From: Candidatus Latescibacterota bacterium
GTDB taxonomy: Bacteria; Latescibacterota; UBA2968; UBA8231
DNA: 64,000 bases
Assembly: GCA_965223905.1 (NCBI GenBank)
Contig: CBDCXV010000010.1
Location: 416,001 to 480,000 of the forward strand
Direction of reading: 5' to 3'
Shown here piece after piece: positions 2,894 through 63,706 of the stretch (its first letter is position 1; every line of letters begins with the position of its first letter). The notes beneath the pieces are model-generated. The model was not told where the DNA came from, ran no database searches, and saw only the letters and a program-made list of their open reading frames with translations. Both the position numbers and the translations under genes were made by a program.

Positions 2894-3994
2894 ATGTCCG
2901 CCGAGGTTTGCGGCCCCGCGGCGCCCTCCCGACCGGGAGCGGCCGCCGCGGGGCGTTTGTTTCTCCTCCTCCTCCTGCTTCTTCTACCGCTCTCCCTCCT
3001 CCTCCCGGGCGGCCCTGCGGCCGCCGAAGGGGTGGCGGTCACTGATTTCCGCGGCAAGCGCATCGAGCTCGAGAAGCCGGCCGAGCGCATCATCTGCCTC
3101 CTCGAGAGCGCCCTCAGCGGGCTCTACATGCTCGGGGCCGAGGACCGCCTCGTCGGCATCTCCACCAACGTCTACCAGGGGAGCGTCTTCCCGTACTACG
3201 CGGCGATGGACGAGCGCATGCGCGAGCGCACCCTGGCGACGCCGGGCAACTGGGACTTCGTCAATATCGAGAGCATGGTGGCCCTGCAACCGGACCTGGT
3301 GATCGTCTGGTCGGGCCAGGAGGAGTCGATTGCCGCCCTCGAGGAGAAGGGGATCCCCGTCTTCGGGGTCTTCATCGAGCGCTTCGAGGATATCCACCGG
3401 GAGATCGCCGCCCTCGGCGAGCTGACCGGCACCCGGGAGCGGGCCGACGAGCTCCTCGCCATCGCCCGGGAGGAGCTGGAGGCGGTGCAGCGCAGGGTCG
3501 CCCCCCTCGAAGGAGAAGGGCCATCCGCCCTGCCGCGCGTCTACTTCATGTGGGCCCAGGGACCGCTGGGGACGGCCGGCCGCAACAGCACCGTGCAGGA
3601 GCTGATCGAGCTGGCCGGCGGGACCAACGTGGCGGCCGGCAGCGACCTGGAAGCCCTGGTGGTCAACCTCGAGAACGTCCTCGTCTGGAACCCGGAGCTG
3701 ATCGTCATGTGGTGCAACGACCGGCTCGACACCGGGGACCTGGGAGAGATGTCAGGATGGCGCACGGTCGCCGCGGTGCGCAACGGGCGGGTGCACGAGC
3801 TTCCCGATCCGTTCTCCTGCGACTTCTGGACCCTGAAGTACATCTTCACCGTCGATCTCGTCGCCCGCTGGTGCCATCCCGACCGGTTCCCGGAAGATGA
3901 CGCCGAGGTCCTGCGGGCCGACCTGCTGAACAAGCTGTACGGGGGGCGCCTGGGAGAGTTGCCGCCCCTGCCCTCGGGACCGGACCGCGGCTGA
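2894..3994 (+). CDS. ABC transporter substrate-binding protein, BtuF/FepB class
   Basis: VTDFRGKRIEL..PAERII, NIESMVALQPDLVI and AVRNGRVHELP motifs; follows the TonB receptor. Confidence 0.88.
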   Translation: MSAEVCGPAAPSRPGAAAAGRLFLLLLLLLLPLSLLLPGGPAAAEGVAVTDFRGKRIELEKPAERIICLLESALSGLYMLGAEDRLVGISTNVYQGSVFPYYAAMDERMRERTLATPGNWDFVNIESMVALQPDLVIVWSGQEESIAALEEKGIPVFGVFIERFEDIHREIAALGELTGTRERADELLAIAREELEAVQRRVAPLEGEGPSALPRVYFMWAQGPLGTAGRNSTVQELIELAGGTNVAAGSDLEALVVNLENVLVWNPELIVMWCNDRLDTGDLGEMSGWRTVAAVRNGRVHELPDPFSCDFWTLKYIFTVDLVARWCHPDRFPEDDAEVLRADLLNKLYGGRLGELPPLPSGPDRG

Positions 3995-4106
3995 GCCCGC
4001 GTCCCTGGTCTCCGGCGTTTCCACCATGGTTGGTTTTTTCTGCCTTTCCTCCATTTTCTCCCATGCTATGCTTCCTGGCTGGTCCCAGTGACAGAGGAGG
4101 ACATAC

Positions 4107-57687: not shown

Positions 57688-59532
57688 CTACTTCAGGTAG
57701 AGCAGGCGCTGAGTCTGCACCCCGCCCGGATAGTGCAGGCGCACCAGGTACATCCCCGCCGACACCAACGCGCCGCGCCGGTCACGCGCATCCCAATGCA
57801 CTTGGTAGGCCCCGGCGGCCTGCACCTCGTCCACCAGCGTGCGCATGGACTGCCCGAGGAGGTTGTAGATCTCCAGGCGCACGGGGCCGTCCGCGGCCAG
57901 GCGATATGGGATGAGGGTGTTGGCGTTGAAGGGGTTGGGCGCGTTGGGCGCGAGGCCCGGCGGCCCGTCCGCGACCGCCGGCTTGGACGCCGGGGCCGCC
58001 GGCGTGTCGATGTGGTACCAGCGGGACCGCTCGCTCGCCCCGTGCTCGTTGATCGCCTTGATCCGATAGGTGTACGTGGTGCTGGCCGCCACCGTGGCGT
58101 CGGTGTAGGTGGTGGCGGCGCTGCCCGTGTCGGCGACCAATACACTGAAGTCGCCCCCGGTATTGTTCACGCGCACGCGGCGCAGGATCACGTAGCCGGT
58201 GATGGAGTCGTCGCCGGGATCGTCCCAGGTGAGGGTCACCGAGTTGTGCGACGCCGTGGCTTCGAGGCCCGTGGGCTTGGCGGGTACGGGCGCTGCCGGG
58301 GTGTCGATGTGGTACCAGCGGGAGCGTTCACTCGTTCCGGCCCCGTTGATGGCCTTGATCCGGTAGGTATAGCGAGTCTCCGCCGCCACCGTGTTGTCGG
58401 TGTAGGTGGTGGCGGCTGTGCCCGTGTCTGCCACCAGCTCATTGAAGTGGCCCTCCGGGTCGACTCCGGGAATGCGCCGCAGGATCACGTAGCCGGTGAT
58501 GGAGTCGTCGCCGGGGTCGTCCCAGGTGAGGGTCACCCGGTCGTGGGTCGCCGTGGCTTCAAGGCCCGTGGGCTTGTCCGGTGCGGAGCCCGGCTCCTCA
58601 CTTTGCTTCTTCTGCCCGGATTGCTTCTTCTGCCCGGACGAGTCCTCCCTCTCCTCGGACGAGGACTGGGTGCGGGGGGCTCTCTTCGTCTCCGACCAGT
58701 CGCCGTAGCCGTCGCCGCTCAGCGCCTGCACGCGGACCTCGTACCTGGTCTGCGCTTCAAGGTCCGTGCGCTTCACGCTGGTCGGAGGGCTGTCGCCGCA
58801 TCCCTTTCCGGTGCCGCGAGAGCCGGGATAGGACTGCTTGTTCCGATTCGTCTCACCGCTGGGGTGGAGGAACTCGACCAGGTAGCACTCGATAGGGAAG
58901 GTGCCCTCTTCGGCCTCATCCCAGCTCACCTCCAGGGTCCCGTCCTCGTCCCTCGGCGCCGTCACGCTCACGTTCTCCGGCGCCGACGGGAGCACGCGCT
59001 CGTACACCAGCGCCACCTTGACCTCGTCGTCCTCTTCCCAGTCGAGGTCGGGGTCGATAAAACCCCAAGCACCTACACCGCCACGACCGAAGTTCGCCAA
59101 CCGAAAGCTCGAGTTGCCGATCCAGAGCGTGATCTTCCCGACGTTGGTTCCGGGTGCATCTCCTAAATTATCCCCCTCAACATTGAGGAGCCTCGGACCA
59201 CCCAAATACAAAGCTTCCACTTCGAATTGATAGTCGGGGTCGAAGTGATGTTTGCCGGGCGGGGACCAGGGCGGGTAGTTGAACTTCGCGCTGGTGCTGA
59301 GTTCTCCCCATCCTTCGCTCTTGTGGTATCCAAGAAGGGCGCTGGCCTTCCCCACCGTCATGGTGGTGCGCCAGAGGTAGAAGTGAGTGTGCTCCGGGCC
59401 GTGGGGCCCGTCGTCGGGGGTATGGGCATCCACCTCGGAGAAGAGCAGGCCCAGCACGGTGCCCGCCACGGCCAGCGCGGCGATGGCGGCGAACAGGACG
59501 GGTAATCGTCGTCTATCGGTGCGAGTCAACAT
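57688..59532 (-). CDS. Secreted fibronectin type III repeat protein with C-terminal FlgD-Ig/sorting domain
   Basis: Signal/TM N-terminus, His-rich linker, three FN3 domains, NAPNPFN..T.IPY.L...VRLEIYNLLGQ..RTLV...WD.RD..G..V.AG.Y. Confidence 0.88.
   Translation of the reverse strand: MLTRTDRRRLPVLFAAIAALAVAGTVLGLLFSEVDAHTPDDGPHGPEHTHFYLWRTTMTVGKASALLGYHKSEGWGELSTSAKFNYPPWSPPGKHHFDPDYQFEVEALYLGGPRLLNVEGDNLGDAPGTNVGKITLWIGNSSFRLANFGRGGVGAWGFIDPDLDWEEDDEVKVALVYERVLPSAPENVSVTAPRDEDGTLEVSWDEAEEGTFPIECYLVEFLHPSGETNRNKQSYPGSRGTGKGCGDSPPTSVKRTDLEAQTRYEVRVQALSGDGYGDWSETKRAPRTQSSSEEREDSSGQKKQSGQKKQSEEPGSAPDKPTGLEATATHDRVTLTWDDPGDDSITGYVILRRIPGVDPEGHFNELVADTGTAATTYTDNTVAAETRYTYRIKAINGAGTSERSRWYHIDTPAAPVPAKPTGLEATASHNSVTLTWDDPGDDSITGYVILRRVRVNNTGGDFSVLVADTGSAATTYTDATVAASTTYTYRIKAINEHGASERSRWYHIDTPAAPASKPAVADGPPGLAPNAPNPFNANTLIPYRLAADGPVRLEIYNLLGQSMRTLVDEVQAAGAYQVHWDARDRRGALVSAGMYLVRLHYPGGVQTQRLLYLK
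58001..58580. repeat. Tandem 297-bp FN3 domain duplication
   Basis: gtgtcgatgtggtaccagcggga at 58004 and 58301; near-identical 99-aa units. Confidence 0.88.
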
Positions 59533-59701
59533 GGTTCCTCCTTGTGCTGGTGCGGGGGTATGGGACGCAGCCCGTCCGCTCCGCAGGCGTAAGCCGATAG
59601 CGGCGCGGAGGGCGCGTGACAGCCGGGCAAGGATGTCGGACGACCCGCTGACTCGGCTGCCTGCCTAACTTCCACGTGGACCCTCCTACCGCTCGTGCTC
59701 G

Positions 59702-59735
59702 ATTGCTCCTGATAACAATAGTTATCGGGAGCAAC
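59702..59735 (+). other. lox-like recombination site A (13-8-13): ATTGCTCCTGATA-ACAATAGT-TATCGGGAGCAAC
   Basis: Arms 11/13 complementary around an asymmetric 8-bp spacer, about 60 bp upstream of the Cre-like gene. Confidence 0.75.
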
Positions 59736-59795
59736 CTCCTCCGGACGTATATCCTTGTCCCAAAGTCAGTTATGCCAATTATGCCCGCAGGAGAT

Positions 59796-60758
59796 GTGAC
59801 CGACCTTCCCGACCCGGCCACTTCCCGGTCACAAACCGGCGAGCGCCTGACCGAGTACCTGGGGGACGCCGATGGCGCCCTCAGCGGCAACACCGTGCGG
59901 GCGCTGAAAGCGGACCTGGAACGGTTCGCGGCGTGGTGCGCCGAGCGGGGGGTCGCTCCGCTGCCGGCGCGCCCGGCCACGCTGGTGGCCTACATCGAGG
60001 CGATGGCGAGCGAGCGCGCGCCGGCCACCGTGCGCCGCTACGTGTCGAGCATCGCCGCCGTGCACAAGGCGGCCGGGGAGCCCGGCCCGCTCGATCGCGT
60101 GACCGTGCGGCGGGCCCTACAGCGCATGCACCGGCGCAAGGGGTGCCGGCAGAGGCAGGTCAAGGGGCTGACCTGGACGCTCCGCCGGCGCCTGATGGAG
60201 GCTGCCGGCGACCGGGTGATCGACGTGCGGAACCGCGCCATCCTGGCCGTGGCCTACGACGCCATGCTCCGCCGCTCCGAGCTGGTCGCGCTGCAAGTCG
60301 TTGACGTGACGATGGATAGGAGCGGCTCGGCCTCGCTCCTCGTGCGTCGAGCGAAGACCGATCCGGAGGGCGGCGGCGCGATGCTCTACCTGCACCGCGA
60401 CAGCGTCAAGCTGCTCTCGGCGTGGCTGAGCGCGAGCGGCATCGCCGGCGGGCCGCTCTTCCGTTCCGTGCGCAAGGACGGCACGGTGGGCGGGAGGCTC
60501 GATGCGAGCCAGGTGCCGCGCATCTACAAGGGGATGGCCGAACGCGCCGGGCTGCCGGCGCGGATCGTTGGGCGGCTCTCCGGGCACAGTCCCCGCGTGG
60601 GCGCGGTTCAGGACATGATCGCCTCGGGGATCGGGACCCCGGCCATCATGCAGGCCGGACGCTGGAAGAGCGCCCAGATGGTGCAGCGCTACGGCGAGCG
60701 GCTGCTCGCCAAGCGGAATGGCGCCGCGCAGTTGGCACGGCTTCAGAAACGCGGATGA
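59796..60758 (+). CDS. Cre-like tyrosine recombinase
   Basis: SAM-like N-domain; catalytic R (LRRSEL), K (AKTD), HxxR (GHSPRVGA), W (AGRW) and Y (RY); GTG start after CAGGAGA. Confidence 0.9.
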   Translation: MTDLPDPATSRSQTGERLTEYLGDADGALSGNTVRALKADLERFAAWCAERGVAPLPARPATLVAYIEAMASERAPATVRRYVSSIAAVHKAAGEPGPLDRVTVRRALQRMHRRKGCRQRQVKGLTWTLRRRLMEAAGDRVIDVRNRAILAVAYDAMLRRSELVALQVVDVTMDRSGSASLLVRRAKTDPEGGGAMLYLHRDSVKLLSAWLSASGIAGGPLFRSVRKDGTVGGRLDASQVPRIYKGMAERAGLPARIVGRLSGHSPRVGAVQDMIASGIGTPAIMQAGRWKSAQMVQRYGERLLAKRNGAAQLARLQKRG

Positions 60759-60803
60759 GCCCCGATGACGTCCAAGGCTTTCCGGTCACAAGATTTGCCG
60801 CAG

Positions 60804-60837
60804 GTAGCTCTCGATTACTATTGCTATCAGGAGCCAA
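60804..60837 (-). other. lox-like recombination site B, inverted relative to site A
   Basis: Reverse complement TTGGCTCCTGATA-GCAATAGT-AATCGAGAGCTAC matches site A at 28/34 by manual alignment; central CAATAG identical. Confidence 0.7.
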
Positions 60838-61009
60838 CTTGGAAAGTAAGCCATGTTGTGTGAGCTAAGTGTGACTTACGGGGCGAAAGCTCGTGACCAT
60901 TAGTGACTTCCCGCGCGAAACGCGCTATCCTCCACTCCCGCCCGGTCCGGCGGAAACGCGGCCGGACCGATCATTCGGAGCCCAGTGAGCTCCGCCTTAC
61001 CCTGCGGCA

Positions 61010-63370
61010 GTGAGTGGAGCATTGAACGATCCAGACCCGGCCGGTCCCGGGAGCGGCGCGTCCGGGGAGCGCATCTCGCGGCTGAGCGCGGCGATCCTGC
61101 GCATCAGCGCGAGCCTCGACCTGGCCACCGTGCTCAAGGAGGTGGTCGACAGCACCCGCGCTCTCACCGGCGCCCGGACCGGTGTCATCACGACGATCGA
61201 CGGGCGGGGACGGGTCCAGGACTTCGTCACCTCCGGCCTCGCCCCGGAGGAGCGCCGGAAGATGGTGGAGTGGCCCGACGGGCCGCGGCTCTTCGCGCAC
61301 CTGCGCGACCTCCCGGCGCCGCTCCGGGTGGCGGACGTGCAGGACTACCTTCGGTCGCTCGGCCTCTCCCCGAACCCGTGGGGCTCGAAGACGATGCAGG
61401 GGACCCCGATGCACCACCGGGGCGAGCATCTCGGCAGCTTCTTCCTGGCCGACAAGGAGGACGGCGAGGCGTTCACGAGCGAGGACGAGGAGATCCTCGT
61501 CCTGCTCGCCTCGCAGGCGGCGACGGCGATCGCCAACGCGCGCACGCACCGCGAGGTCGAGCGGGCGCGGGCCGACCTCGAGGCCCTGGTCGAGACCTCG
61601 CCGGTCGGCGTCGCGGTGTTCGACGCCGCAACCGGCCATCCGGTCTCGTTCAACCGCGAGGCGCGGCGCATCGTCGAGCGCCTCCGCACCCCCGGCCACC
61701 CCCCGGAGCAGCTGCTCGAGGTGATCACGTGCCGGCACGCCGACGGGCGGGAGGTCTCGCTCGACGAGCTTCCCCTGTCCCGCCAGCTCGGGAGCGCGAC
61801 GACGATGCGCGCCGAGGAAGTCGAACTCTCCGTGCCCGACGGACGGAGCGTCCGGACGCTCTTGAACGTCACGCCGATCCGTTCGGACGACGGAGGCGCC
61901 GTGTCGGTCGTCGTCACCATGCAGGACCTGGAACCACTCGAGGAACTGGAGCGGCAGCGGGCGGAGTTCCTCGGCATGGTGAGTCATGAACTGCGCGCCC
62001 CGCTCACCTCGATCAAGGGCTCGGCCGCGACCGTGCTGGACGCCGCCACGCTCCCGTCCCAGGCCGAGATGGTGCAGTTCTTCCGCATCATCGGCGGGCA
62101 GGCCGACCACATGCGGGGCCTCATCGCGAACCTGCTGGACGCGGGGAGCATCGAGGCGGGCACGCTCACCGTGCAGCCCGAGCCCTCGGACGTGGCGGTC
62201 CTGGTGGACCGGGCCCGCAACACGTTCCTGAGCGGCGGCGGCCGCCAGGCCGTCCTCATCGACCTGCCGCCGGACCTGCCGCCGGCGATGGCCGACCGCG
62301 AGCGCATCGTGCAGGTGCTGAACAACCTGCTCTCGAACGCGGCCCGGCACGCTCCGCCCTCGTCGCCGATCCGGGTCGAGGCGGGGCGCGAGGGCGGCTC
62401 CGTCGCGATCTCGGTCTCCGACGAGGGCCGGGGGATCCCGCCCGACGAGCTTCCGCATCTCTTCGGGAAGCCCGCCCGGCCGGCCGGAGGCACCGGGCTC
62501 GGGCTCGCGATCTGCAAGGGACTCGTCGAGGCGCACGGCGGCCGCATCCGCGCCGAGAGCGGGGGCACGGGCCAGGGCGCGCGCTTCACGTTCACGATCC
62601 CCGTGGCCGGGGAGGTCGCACCGGAAGCGGCCCCGCCCCGCGGCCCGACGCGTACGCCGGGGGAGGGGCGGGAGAAGACGCGCATCCTGGTCGTGGACGA
62701 CGACCCGCAGACGCTCCGCTACGTGCGGGACGTCCTCTCCGATGTGGGATACGCCCCGCTCGTCACGGGCGATCCGGACGGGCTGGGCGGCGTGATCCGC
62801 GCCGAGAAGCCCCGCCTCGTGCTCCTCGACCTCATGCTGCCGGGCACGGACGGGATCGAGCTGATGCGGCGGGTCCCGGAGTTGTCCGACCTCCCGGTCA
62901 TCTTCATCTCCGGGTACGGCCGCGACGAGACCATCGCCAGGGCGCTCGAGAGCGGCGCGGCCGACTACATCGTCAAGCCCTTCTCGCCGACCGAGCTCGT
63001 CGCCCGGGTGCAGGCGGCGCTGCGGAACAAGGCCCAGGCCGAAACCTTCGTGCTCGGGGAACTGGCCATCGATTACGGCCTGCGGCGCGTGAGCGTGGCC
63101 GGTCGCGCGGTCCCGCTCACGACCACGGAATACGAGCTGCTGCGCGTCCTGTCGGCGGGCGGCGGACGGGTCGTCACCACGGAGGCGCTCCTCCGGCAGG
63201 TGTGGGGGCGCCGCGGCTCGGACGACACCGACCGCGTGCGCACCGCCGTCAAGAAGCTCCGGGCCAAGCTCGGCGACGACGTCGCCAACCCGACCTACAT
63301 CTTCAACGAGCACGGGATCGGCTACCGCTTCGCGAGGCCGGGCAGGGCCCATGAGGCGGTAGCCGGCTGA
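61010..63370 (+). CDS. Cytoplasmic hybrid sensor-regulator: GAF-PAS-HisKA-HATPase-REC-OmpR-type winged helix
   Basis: VSHELRAPLTSIKG, NLLSNA, DEGRGI, GTGLGL, VVDDD..LLDLMLPG..KPF, LT..EYELL...LRAKLGD...YI...G.GYRF; no TM segment. Confidence 0.92.
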   Translation: MSGALNDPDPAGPGSGASGERISRLSAAILRISASLDLATVLKEVVDSTRALTGARTGVITTIDGRGRVQDFVTSGLAPEERRKMVEWPDGPRLFAHLRDLPAPLRVADVQDYLRSLGLSPNPWGSKTMQGTPMHHRGEHLGSFFLADKEDGEAFTSEDEEILVLLASQAATAIANARTHREVERARADLEALVETSPVGVAVFDAATGHPVSFNREARRIVERLRTPGHPPEQLLEVITCRHADGREVSLDELPLSRQLGSATTMRAEEVELSVPDGRSVRTLLNVTPIRSDDGGAVSVVVTMQDLEPLEELERQRAEFLGMVSHELRAPLTSIKGSAATVLDAATLPSQAEMVQFFRIIGGQADHMRGLIANLLDAGSIEAGTLTVQPEPSDVAVLVDRARNTFLSGGGRQAVLIDLPPDLPPAMADRERIVQVLNNLLSNAARHAPPSSPIRVEAGREGGSVAISVSDEGRGIPPDELPHLFGKPARPAGGTGLGLAICKGLVEAHGGRIRAESGGTGQGARFTFTIPVAGEVAPEAAPPRGPTRTPGEGREKTRILVVDDDPQTLRYVRDVLSDVGYAPLVTGDPDGLGGVIRAEKPRLVLLDLMLPGTDGIELMRRVPELSDLPVIFISGYGRDETIARALESGAADYIVKPFSPTELVARVQAALRNKAQAETFVLGELAIDYGLRRVSVAGRAVPLTTTEYELLRVLSAGGGRVVTTEALLRQVWGRRGSDDTDRVRTAVKKLRAKLGDDVANPTYIFNEHGIGYRFARPGRAHEAVAG

Positions 63371-63420
63371 CGTTCAGGGATACCGTGCGAGCGGGAAGCG
63401 AGTGTCGAGGATCCCGGATC

Positions 63421-63706
63421 TCACTCCCGGTCCACCGCGGGAGCGCGCCGGAAGGCCCACAGACAGATCAGGAAGGCGGCGGCGGTCTCCACCAGCAGGA
63501 TGGAGATGGGGCCACCCCGGCGATCTGTCGGGTCGAGGCGGTCAGGAAGACCGCGGTCAGCAGGTCGCGGAAGGGAGCGCCGGGAGCGCGGGGTCGAAGC
63601 GGCGGGCGCGGGCTTCGGAGTAGAGGTGGAGGAGAACGGCGACTCCGCCGGTCAGGCCCAGAATCAGACCGCAGGAGATCAGTACTGCAGGCTTGCGGGA
63701 GGTCAT
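63421..63706 (-). pseudogene. Degraded membrane-protein gene
   Basis: MTSRKPAVLISCGLILGLTGGVAVLLHLY start and PISILLVETAAAFLICLWAFRR...* end lie in different frames. Confidence 0.35.

Follow-up and report, generated by a model that had tools for sequence, protein, structure and literature searches.

The Cre-family recombinase gene in this DNA lies between two inverted lox-like sites, and together they form a 1.13-kb cassette that is probably flipped by its own enzyme and acts as a phase switch that governs a surface adhesin and is linked to a two-component sensor. We put the probability of this reading at about 0.6. The features on which it rests are listed in Table 1; the window is the whole stretch of DNA that was analyzed, 64,000 nucleotides long, and positions are counted from its first letter.

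Table 1. Features of the cassette and its surroundings in the window
Feature	Positions	Strand	Description
Adhesin-like surface protein gene	57688-59532	-	614 aa; from the open reading frame and Pfam; transcribed away from the recombinase gene
Block present twice in the genome	59617-63510	+	3894 bp; includes sites A and B and the genes of the recombinase and the kinase/regulator
Site A	59702-59735	.	lox-like, 34 bp, ATTGCTCCTGATA ACAATAGT TATCGGGAGCAAC
Site A, subdivisions	59705-59732		28-bp core; asymmetric centre AATA within CAATAG
Promoter-like element in the cassette	59725-59753	+	TCGGGA (59725-59730), 17 nt, TATATC (59748-59753)
Cre-family tyrosine recombinase gene	59772-60758	+	328 aa; catalytic Tyr is residue 307
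Site B	60804-60837	.	inverted copy of A; 28/34 identical, core 25/28; CAATAG centre
Conserved control region outside B	60860-60931	+	four GTGA(C) direct repeats and a promoter-like element
Hybrid sensor kinase/response regulator gene	61010-63370	+	GAF, PAS, HisKA, HATPase_c, Response_reg and Trans_reg_C domains (Pfam)

According to the model that we favor, the recombinase would bind both 34-bp sites, and strand exchange within their shared asymmetric centre would flip the cassette. The inverted segment would carry the recombinase gene together with an apparent promoter that has its -35-like hexamer within a site's inner arm. With a promoter placed inside the cassette, the orientation seen here would send outgoing transcription toward the hybrid kinase/regulator gene, and a flip would redirect it toward the divergent giant adhesin-like gene. 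For this genome we infer the flipping itself, the position of the promoter and the gene whose expression would change.

The recombinase aligned with Cre over its full length in a phmmer search of solved structures (residues 12-317 against Cre 14-333, E 7.9e-30). Cre residues R173, K201, H289, R292, W315 and Y324 correspond to R167, K195, H272, R275, W298 and Y307 of the window enzyme; the list of catalytic residues of Cre-type enzymes was taken from PMC10250229. All six positions are invariant across 31 homologues. Pfam recognized the Phage_integrase and Phage_int_SAM_1 domains, and the XerC and XerD models scored 40-44 bits against cut-offs of 330-335. Judged by homology and catalytic residues, the protein belongs with the Cre-type tyrosine recombinases, and it may act on its sites without accessory proteins.

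Sites A and B are both 34-bp near-palindromes. Counted by hand, A matches the reverse complement of B at 28 of 34 positions and B in direct orientation at 23 of 34. The central 6 bp, CAATAG, are identical in the two sites, and the single difference in the 8-bp spacer falls outside them. Arm symmetry is 11/12 in A and 8/12 in B, the less symmetric of the two, and the arm differences between A and B include a G/A position that is also variable among the perfectly paired sites of relatives. The palindromy of the arms reaches as far as a 4-bp asymmetric centre (AATA), so that both a 13-8-13 and a 15-4-15 reading of the site are possible. At either end of the 8-bp spacer the outer 2 bp are still palindromic, which leaves only 4-6 bp asymmetric.

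A repeat search returned the two sites as the longest inverted repeat in positions 59300-61300 (33 nt with 88% complementarity, separated by 1064 nt). When up to 3 mismatches were allowed, the 28-bp core of A matched only A and B in the 64-kb window, B on the minus strand, with 0.00 matches expected from 100 shuffles. Across all 7.9 Mb of the genome, a search for full sites that allowed 8 mismatches in 32 at most recovered only A and B of this locus and those of the second copy described below. The end of A is separated by 36 nt from the ATG at 59772, and the stop codon (60756-60758) by 45 nt from the start of B. A 34-bp target with inverted arms of about 13 bp and an asymmetric spacer close to the gene is the arrangement of a Cre-type system, and both sites follow it, as do the site types of relatives described below. 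The original prediction had claimed a Cre-type R-K-HxxR-W-Y set and two inverted 34-bp lox-like sites, 28/34 identical and sharing CAATAG. The aligned residues and the full-length homology to Cre bore out the former; the hand count and the repeat and core searches confirmed the latter. Its 13-8-13 layout is refined by the 4-bp asymmetric centre, with which a 15-4-15 reading is also possible.

Of 8000 candidates scored in the protein search, 1968 matched at E≤1e-20. The 120 best of these 1968 matches were 70-92% identical, and some came from metagenome-assembled genomes (MAGs) named Candidatus Palauibacter, Gemmatimonadales and Gammaproteobacteria. In one Longimicrobiales family, 28 of 314 genomes carried the recombinase, with up to 7 copies per genome. 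We assembled 63 non-redundant loci from 29 genomes and 7 metagenome contigs, at 56-100% protein identity, leaving out near-identical duplicates (L015, L016, L019, L021, L022, L029, L039, L040, L041, L043, L066 and L067). Inverted 26-mer matches were sought between two flanks of 400 nt, one on each side of the gene, and a site pair was called when the best match reached at least 21/26. In 150 trials with unrelated flanks, the best match averaged 17.2 and never exceeded 20.

An inverted pair was present in 55 of the 63 loci and was perfect (26/26) in 29 of them. In all paired loci but one (54 of 55), the upstream site lay 46-74 nt ahead of the start codon; in the remaining one, L141, it was at -15 and the recombinase was shortened at its 5' end. 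The downstream site began 45-82 nt past the stop codon, or 150-309 nt past it in the clade of 59-63% identity. With 23/26 the window pair is among the most diverged, and lower values were found only in L042 and L032 (22/26) and L061 (21/26). The eight exceptions comprised a 2.9-kb insertion between A and the gene (L046), an IS256-family insertion (L123), a contig end (L056), a truncated gene (L052), a locus with A only (L018), a diverged pair of 20/26 (L012), a locus in which no site pair was found (L064), and L068, where the pair lies wholly downstream of the recombinase gene. Metagenome homologues at 28-53% identity had no flanking inverted pair above the null; when 1.5 kb around them was covered, the only pair came from an inverted partial gene duplication in L078. 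Viral contigs contained only relatives of 28-32% identity. Reading contig 1 of genome G416 as a circle was rejected: the joined ends run the recombinase frame into unrelated sequence, and the contig ends inside the cassette.

Among the paired sites, 24 types can be distinguished by their arms and by the asymmetric centre (TGTA, TGGA, GGGA, TGCA, AATA and others). On average, A agreed with the reverse complement of B at 25.0/26 positions within a locus and at 19.9/26 between loci. The inverted score exceeded the direct score in 55/55 paired loci, and the own B was the best partner of A for 22/24 site types, which is the safer figure because loci of one genome are not independent.

The cassette of the window is part of a block with a second copy 1.17 Mb away on the same contig (C10:1641711-1645604), 99.67% identical with 13 differences. 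The internal orientation is the same in both copies, and in each the 328-aa frame is intact and its catalytic set complete. The 3.9-kb duplicated block has sharp edges, at which no direct repeat or target-site duplication was found. An insertion sequence or transposon with terminal inverted repeats was discarded as a candidate, given the lack of a target-site duplication, the conserved context, and an enzyme that is a site-specific recombinase and not a transposase. The GC content of the block is 70.9% against 63.9% for the contig. A Longimicrobiales MAG has a locus that matches the second copy, with some 600 codons of the adjoining adhesin gene, at 87.9% identity over 5.6 kb. The recombinase was not found in 40 relatives (E≤1e-40), nor in 167 other genomes of the host phylum (E≤1e-70, at most 13 candidates scored per genome). 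We read the block as a horizontal acquisition that was followed by local duplication.

A foreign origin would also be seen if the cassette in this genome were a horizontally acquired relic that no longer flips, its sites drifting and its gene persisting only by recent arrival. The GC content, the similarity to the Longimicrobiales locus and the two surveys of relatives fit such a relic, as do the low A/B score, undercut in only three of the 55 paired loci, and the single orientation of both copies. Against it stand the intact recombinase frames with their complete catalytic set and the identical 6-bp centre of A and B, outside which the spacer difference falls; moreover, one of the arm differences is the G/A position that varies among perfectly paired relatives as well. 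On balance we consider a relic unlikely.

Reads assembled elsewhere were also compared. Logan contigs of 16 runs from 6 studies hold the stretch, and four of these runs were compared over 59000-61600 at 90% likeness. The contigs are short fragments from many related strains, sponge-associated according to the labels of the RNA runs. Some bridge A and others bridge B, all in the reference orientation, with no joint that changes strand among those listed; since contigs drop rare variants, a minority orientation is invisible in them and their single orientation is uninformative on flipping. Contigs of one sponge metatranscriptome run covered parts of the 3' half of the recombinase gene and the start of the kinase gene, for which DNA carry-over is possible.

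Flipped forms were found in relatives. The kinase/regulator gene lies downstream on the same strand as the recombinase gene in 39 of the 63 loci, is divergent from it in 3 and is absent from 21; accordingly, among the 42 kinase-linked loci, the cassette has the standard orientation in 39 and is flipped in L056, L123 and L139. The clearest case is L123 (genome G345), compared with the unflipped L058 (G416): both flanks are about 98% identical, the 1.1 kb between the sites is inverted, and the alignments break inside the 28-bp sites. The single site of L056 is the exact recombinant predicted from the inner A arm and the outer B arm of L058. L139 is a separate flipped case with a perfect pair, and is without an unflipped counterpart of matching flanks. 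Since L056 and L123 come from a single lineage, with 99.8% identity on their kinase sides, and such a counterpart is lacking for L139, independent inversion events may number two.

At the level of assembled sequences, these comparisons show natural flipped forms in relatives, with breakpoints inside the sites, and the data show at least two rearrangement events. The flips were seen between assemblies of different species, which proves inversion over evolutionary time and not rapid switching within a population. The original prediction had asked for both orientations and for conserved paired sites at homologous loci. Both turned up, the former in 3/42 loci with common flanks and breakpoints within sites in L123/L058, the latter in 55/63 loci with co-varying A and B. 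Its central statement, that the segment between A and B can flip, is supported for the family through these relatives; for this genome it is only plausible. Some observations weigh against a switch: a single orientation in both copies here and in 39 of the 42 kinase-linked loci, the divergence of the window's site pair with its 8/12 arm symmetry in B, the empty scan for consensus promoters and terminators given below, and 21 of 63 loci without the kinase gene.

The same loci raise the question whether the cassette is instead a movable module, exchanged or dropped in either way by double crossover, with no gene being switched. The homology of L139 to about 20 other loci spans 2933-4076, with sites at 2935 and 4075, so that it ends exactly at the outer site edges and the flanks are unrelated; this suggests, from the alignments, exchange of the whole cassette by double crossover. 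Many pairwise comparisons likewise begin at the outer edge of site A, copies occur in regions resembling integrative and conjugative elements (ICE; with ArdC, a T2SSE-type ATPase and a relaxase), and a genome can hold as many as 7 of them. However, L123 and L058 differ by inversion alone and have both flanks in common, the cassette always sits beside an adhesin-like gene and not at varied targets, and flipping in place, with both inverted sites on one molecule, is a simpler reaction than exchange. Exchange needs the identical enzyme and sites, so that it adds to the inversion model and does not replace it. As a full account, a module that switches nothing seems quite improbable to us.

The switch reading draws its output from the genes on either side. 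The adhesin-like protein of the window has three FN3 domains, a C-terminal FlgD_ig-type domain and an N-terminus resembling a signal anchor, and each copy of the block has an FN3 surface-protein gene upstream on the opposite strand. A large adhesin-like gene is divergently upstream in nearly all homologous loci. A long minus-strand frame starts beside site A in 49 of the 54 loci of a first set; opposite-strand long frames are common in GC-rich DNA, which makes the subset tested with Pfam the firmer evidence, and there all nine of the large upstream frames were adhesin-like (FN3, cadherin, Calx-beta, SRCR, Ig-like/Big_12, SWM_repeat, He_PIG). In L123 and L139, the flipped loci with sequence past the far site, the recombinase gene is co-directional with a gene for an FN3 or Calx-beta surface protein. 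The signal peptides of the adhesins lie 250-330 nt from the site. An inversion that alters the gene, with the cassette supplying the N-terminus of the adhesin, was rejected in view of this distance and of stop-to-B lengths that vary out of frame. The open frames of the adhesin genes do extend up to the site.

On the other side, the hybrid kinase/regulator has 786 aa as annotated, and the column in which the aligned starts fall makes the TTG at 61022, after GGAG, the likely true start. Between the kinase gene and B, the GTGA(C) repeats begin at 60860, 60871, 60893 and 60903, spaced by 11, 22 and 10 nt and thus in helical phase. The promoter-like element outside B consists of GTGACT (60903-60908), 17 nt, and TATCCT (60926-60931); GTGAC and TAT of this region are invariant in 14 of 14 aligned loci. 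The repeats would fit autoregulation by the OmpR-type output domain and are candidate binding sites. In the flipped state they would sit just upstream of the cassette promoter. The RNA fold of the kinase leader had a z-score of -1.78, and RNAalifold on 14 loci returned no consensus structure.

Of the promoter-like element inside the cassette, the TCGGGA hexamer belongs to the inner arm of site A, and TATATC ends 18 nt before the ATG. The layout, TATnTC 16-17 nt after TCGRGA, then GGAG and ATG, is kept in all aligned loci (n=16). A scan of 59400-61150 for sigma-70 consensus promoters and for terminators gave 0 of each, and Rfam on 59400-61200 gave one match, at chance level. The element resembles a weak promoter; it would move along with the cassette, and bound recombinase would block it. 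That the inner arm of A overlaps the -35-like hexamer, where binding would be expected to repress, fits sites that are mere operators for self-repression of the recombinase in an incidentally inverted arrangement, an idea that we find very hard to credit since it leaves unexplained why 55 of 63 loci have a second site at a constant place past the stop codon, why the asymmetric centres co-vary, and why natural recombinants cross over within sites.

The sister locus L068 (56% identity) shows the same promoter-like layout in another arrangement. Its pair, 25/26, encloses about 350 bp between the recombinase gene and an adhesin-like gene; the enclosed segment begins with the arm-plus-hexamer layout and is followed by the gene of an FN3/He_PIG/SWM protein. 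Its sequence organization makes L068 a promoter inverton of the classic kind, placed before an adhesin gene. By analogy, the cassette of the window would be an inverton of the L068 type with the recombinase gene placed inside. Since the kinase gene has its own promoter-like element and the adhesin leaders of 250-330 nt could hold promoters, we only infer the regulatory output of the flip. The original prediction of a minimal autonomous inverton stands in one respect, only the recombinase gene being found between the sites, but the cassette is not free-standing, as adhesin-like and sensor kinase/regulator genes adjoin it, and it appears to bring a promoter with it.

The closest known systems include Cre/loxP of phage P1 and the Cre-type recombinases applied in genome engineering, such as Dre, Vika, Nigri and Panto. 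The likeness consists in full-length homology (E 8e-30) and the six catalytic residues, and in a target of 34 bp, less than 100 nt from the gene, whose inverted arms surround an asymmetric centre. A single loxP is found near the cre gene, and the role of Cre is plasmid circularization and dimer resolution. Here, in contrast, two inverted sites bracket the gene, a layout conserved across the clade, and the site sequence is unrelated to loxP beyond its layout. Lox-like sites of Cre-type recombinases have been sought within 1 kb of the gene, according to PMC10250229.

The switches fimS (FimB/FimE) and cmrRST of C. difficile (RecV) have a short invertible promoter before genes for surface structures or signal transduction, exactly the layout of L068, but their recombinase is encoded outside the segment and comes from other tyrosine-recombinase groups. 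The invertible segment of Hin/hix in Salmonella carries an outward-reading promoter, and Hin, a serine recombinase, depends on an enhancer and on Fis. The cassette resembles it in having the recombinase gene and an apparent outward promoter in the segment and short inverted sites at the ends; it differs in its Cre-type tyrosine recombinase and in its flanking genes. That the hin gene lies inside its own invertible segment is stated in PMC5903667 (see also PMC9881135). The gene also lies within its own inverton for the PsrA/CreX-type tyrosine invertases of the "epigenetic invertons" of Type I restriction-modification (PMC7672463). Those enzymes shuffle coding segments of hsdS through longer repeats inside genes, whereas the sites here are intergenic, minimal 34-bp lox-like sites with only the recombinase coding sequence between them.

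The dif modules of Acinetobacter plasmids are similar in being discrete modules with inverted recombination sites in varied contexts. They depend on XerCD of the host, which acts at 28-bp dif-like sites, and their cargo is resistance or toxin-antitoxin genes, whereas the cassette encodes its own Cre-type enzyme. For the cassette, homology between loci stops at the site edges, but the context is always that of an adhesin-like gene. Dependence on host XerC/XerD and 11-6-11 dif-like sites was rejected on account of the own Cre-type enzyme, its low Xer scores and the 34-bp site.

A search of the full-text literature found no description of a gene for a Cre-type enzyme flanked on both sides by inverted lox-like sites of its own; the pair lists in the supplement of PMC10250229, which were outside its scope, might include members of this clade. 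An invertase encoded inside its own segment is already known from Hin and PsrA/CreX, and it is the Cre-type version with lox-like sites that appears to be new.

The natural roles of Cre-type enzymes are usually given as plasmid or phage circularization and dimer resolution. A clade in which the gene of the enzyme is itself the invertible segment would extend the Cre family to phase variation. Our results suggest that sponge-associated Gemmatimonadota, and a recipient in another phylum, may vary the display of giant FN3/cadherin/Calx-beta/SRCR adhesin-like proteins by inversion.

A wider reading, which we offer as a tentative possibility, is that of a portable, heritable Cre-type toggle in sponge-associated bacteria that faces the GAF-PAS sensor kinase/regulator gene one way and a giant, eukaryote-like adhesin gene the other; the adhesin gene would then be driven by the cassette promoter, adjacent to the repeats that the regulator would bind, so that a two-component signal and a DNA memory would jointly set adhesin display, with sites that permit exchange of cassettes between loci and conjugative elements, and with at least 24 co-evolved pairs. 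If this were true, cassette exchange at the sites would be a natural form of recombinase-mediated cassette exchange, and the clade would be a ready-made library of at least 24 mutually distinct Cre/lox-like pairs. The 24 co-varying enzyme/site types are in any case candidates for mutually orthogonal recombinase/site pairs for genome engineering. Several distinct site types coexist in single genomes (e.g., G169, G348 and G416), so that their specificity has in effect been tested by evolution.

The recombinase cassette and the adjoining hybrid sensor kinase/response regulator gene together make up a 3.9-kb block that occurs twice in the host genome (G000). The two copies (Table) are 99.67% identical and in direct orientation, with 1.17 Mb between them, and the block has a GC content of 70.9% versus 63.9% in the contig. 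A locus from Longimicrobiales is 87.9% identical to the second copy and to about 600 codons of the adhesin gene of that copy. The block looks like the result of a cross-phylum transfer followed by a local duplication. In Longimicrobiales, the cassette loci (L011 and L047) adjoin conjugation-type genes, which encode ArdC-N with a zincin peptidase, a T2SSE/VirB11-like ATPase, and a MobA/VirD2-like relaxase; this neighborhood therefore indicates that the cassette travels on ICE-like elements.

The kinase/regulator family is distributed far more widely than the recombinase. Within the order of genome G168, the GAF-PAS kinase/regulator family was present in 54 of 301 genomes versus 21 of 301 for the recombinase; some genomes had at least seven copies, and the copies mostly had no cassette in front.

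In the leader of the kinase/regulator gene, which is conserved, four helically phased GTGA(C) repeats accompany a GTGACT-17-TATCCT element. A pairing of CCTCCACTCC with GGAGTGGAG was also predicted in this leader and would mask the ribosome-binding site. The leader had a fold z-score of no more than −1.78 in strength, and no consensus structure emerged from RNAalifold across 14 loci.

Table. Coordinates of the block copies, leaders, and other features in the host genome and at homologous loci
Feature	Location	Strand
3.9-kb block, first copy	window 59617-63510	
3.9-kb block, second copy	G000:C10:1641711-1645604	
Kinase/regulator leader	window 60860-61025	
Conjugation-type neighborhood of Longimicrobiales cassette loci	L011:10844-12973; L047:701-2197	
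IS256-family insertion	L123:7923-9355	
Contig start in flipped cassette (L056)	G416:C1:1-903	
Hairpin-bearing adhesin leaders (alignment A2)	L002:1060-1433; also L011, L047, L050, L053	(-), L002
(CTGC)n repeat	L068:2600-2655	
Cre-like paralogues (among others)	G000: C9:419230-420090, 475065-475913, 787886-788731; C10:45321-46169; C11:195889-196725, 382018-382902	
Homologue with inverted partial duplicate	L078:3393-4690	

At two homologous loci, L123 and L046, an insertion separates the site from the recombinase start. The flipped cassette of L123 carries an IS256-family element (Transposase_mut, E 8e-38), which has 9 bp of overlap at the edges and may lock the flipped orientation; the insertion in L046 is about 2.9 kb long and lies between site A and the gene. 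At L056, the start of a 4.8-Mb contig falls within the flipped cassette, about 25 nt ahead of the stop codon of the recombinase gene; a break of this kind is what an assembler may yield where a segment is invertible or repeated.

A conserved GC-rich hairpin (GCCGCCCCGC CGGGGCGGC) with a C/T-rich run after it recurs in the 5′ leaders of adhesin genes that otherwise differ, about 100 nt ahead of the part coding for the signal peptide. Possible identities for the hairpin are an attenuator and a repeat element. At the sister locus L068, the small invertible segment is separated from the adhesin-like gene by a (CTGC)n tandem repeat with about 13 units. With this repeat, the same leader may hold a second phase-variation device, of the slipped-strand type.

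The host genome encodes at least eight further Cre-like paralogues, with 34%–40% identity to the cassette recombinase. At L078, the gene of a 48%-identical homologue is followed, about 1 kb downstream, by an inverted second copy of its own 3′ part. This arrangement is a different one and might permit C-terminal swapping.
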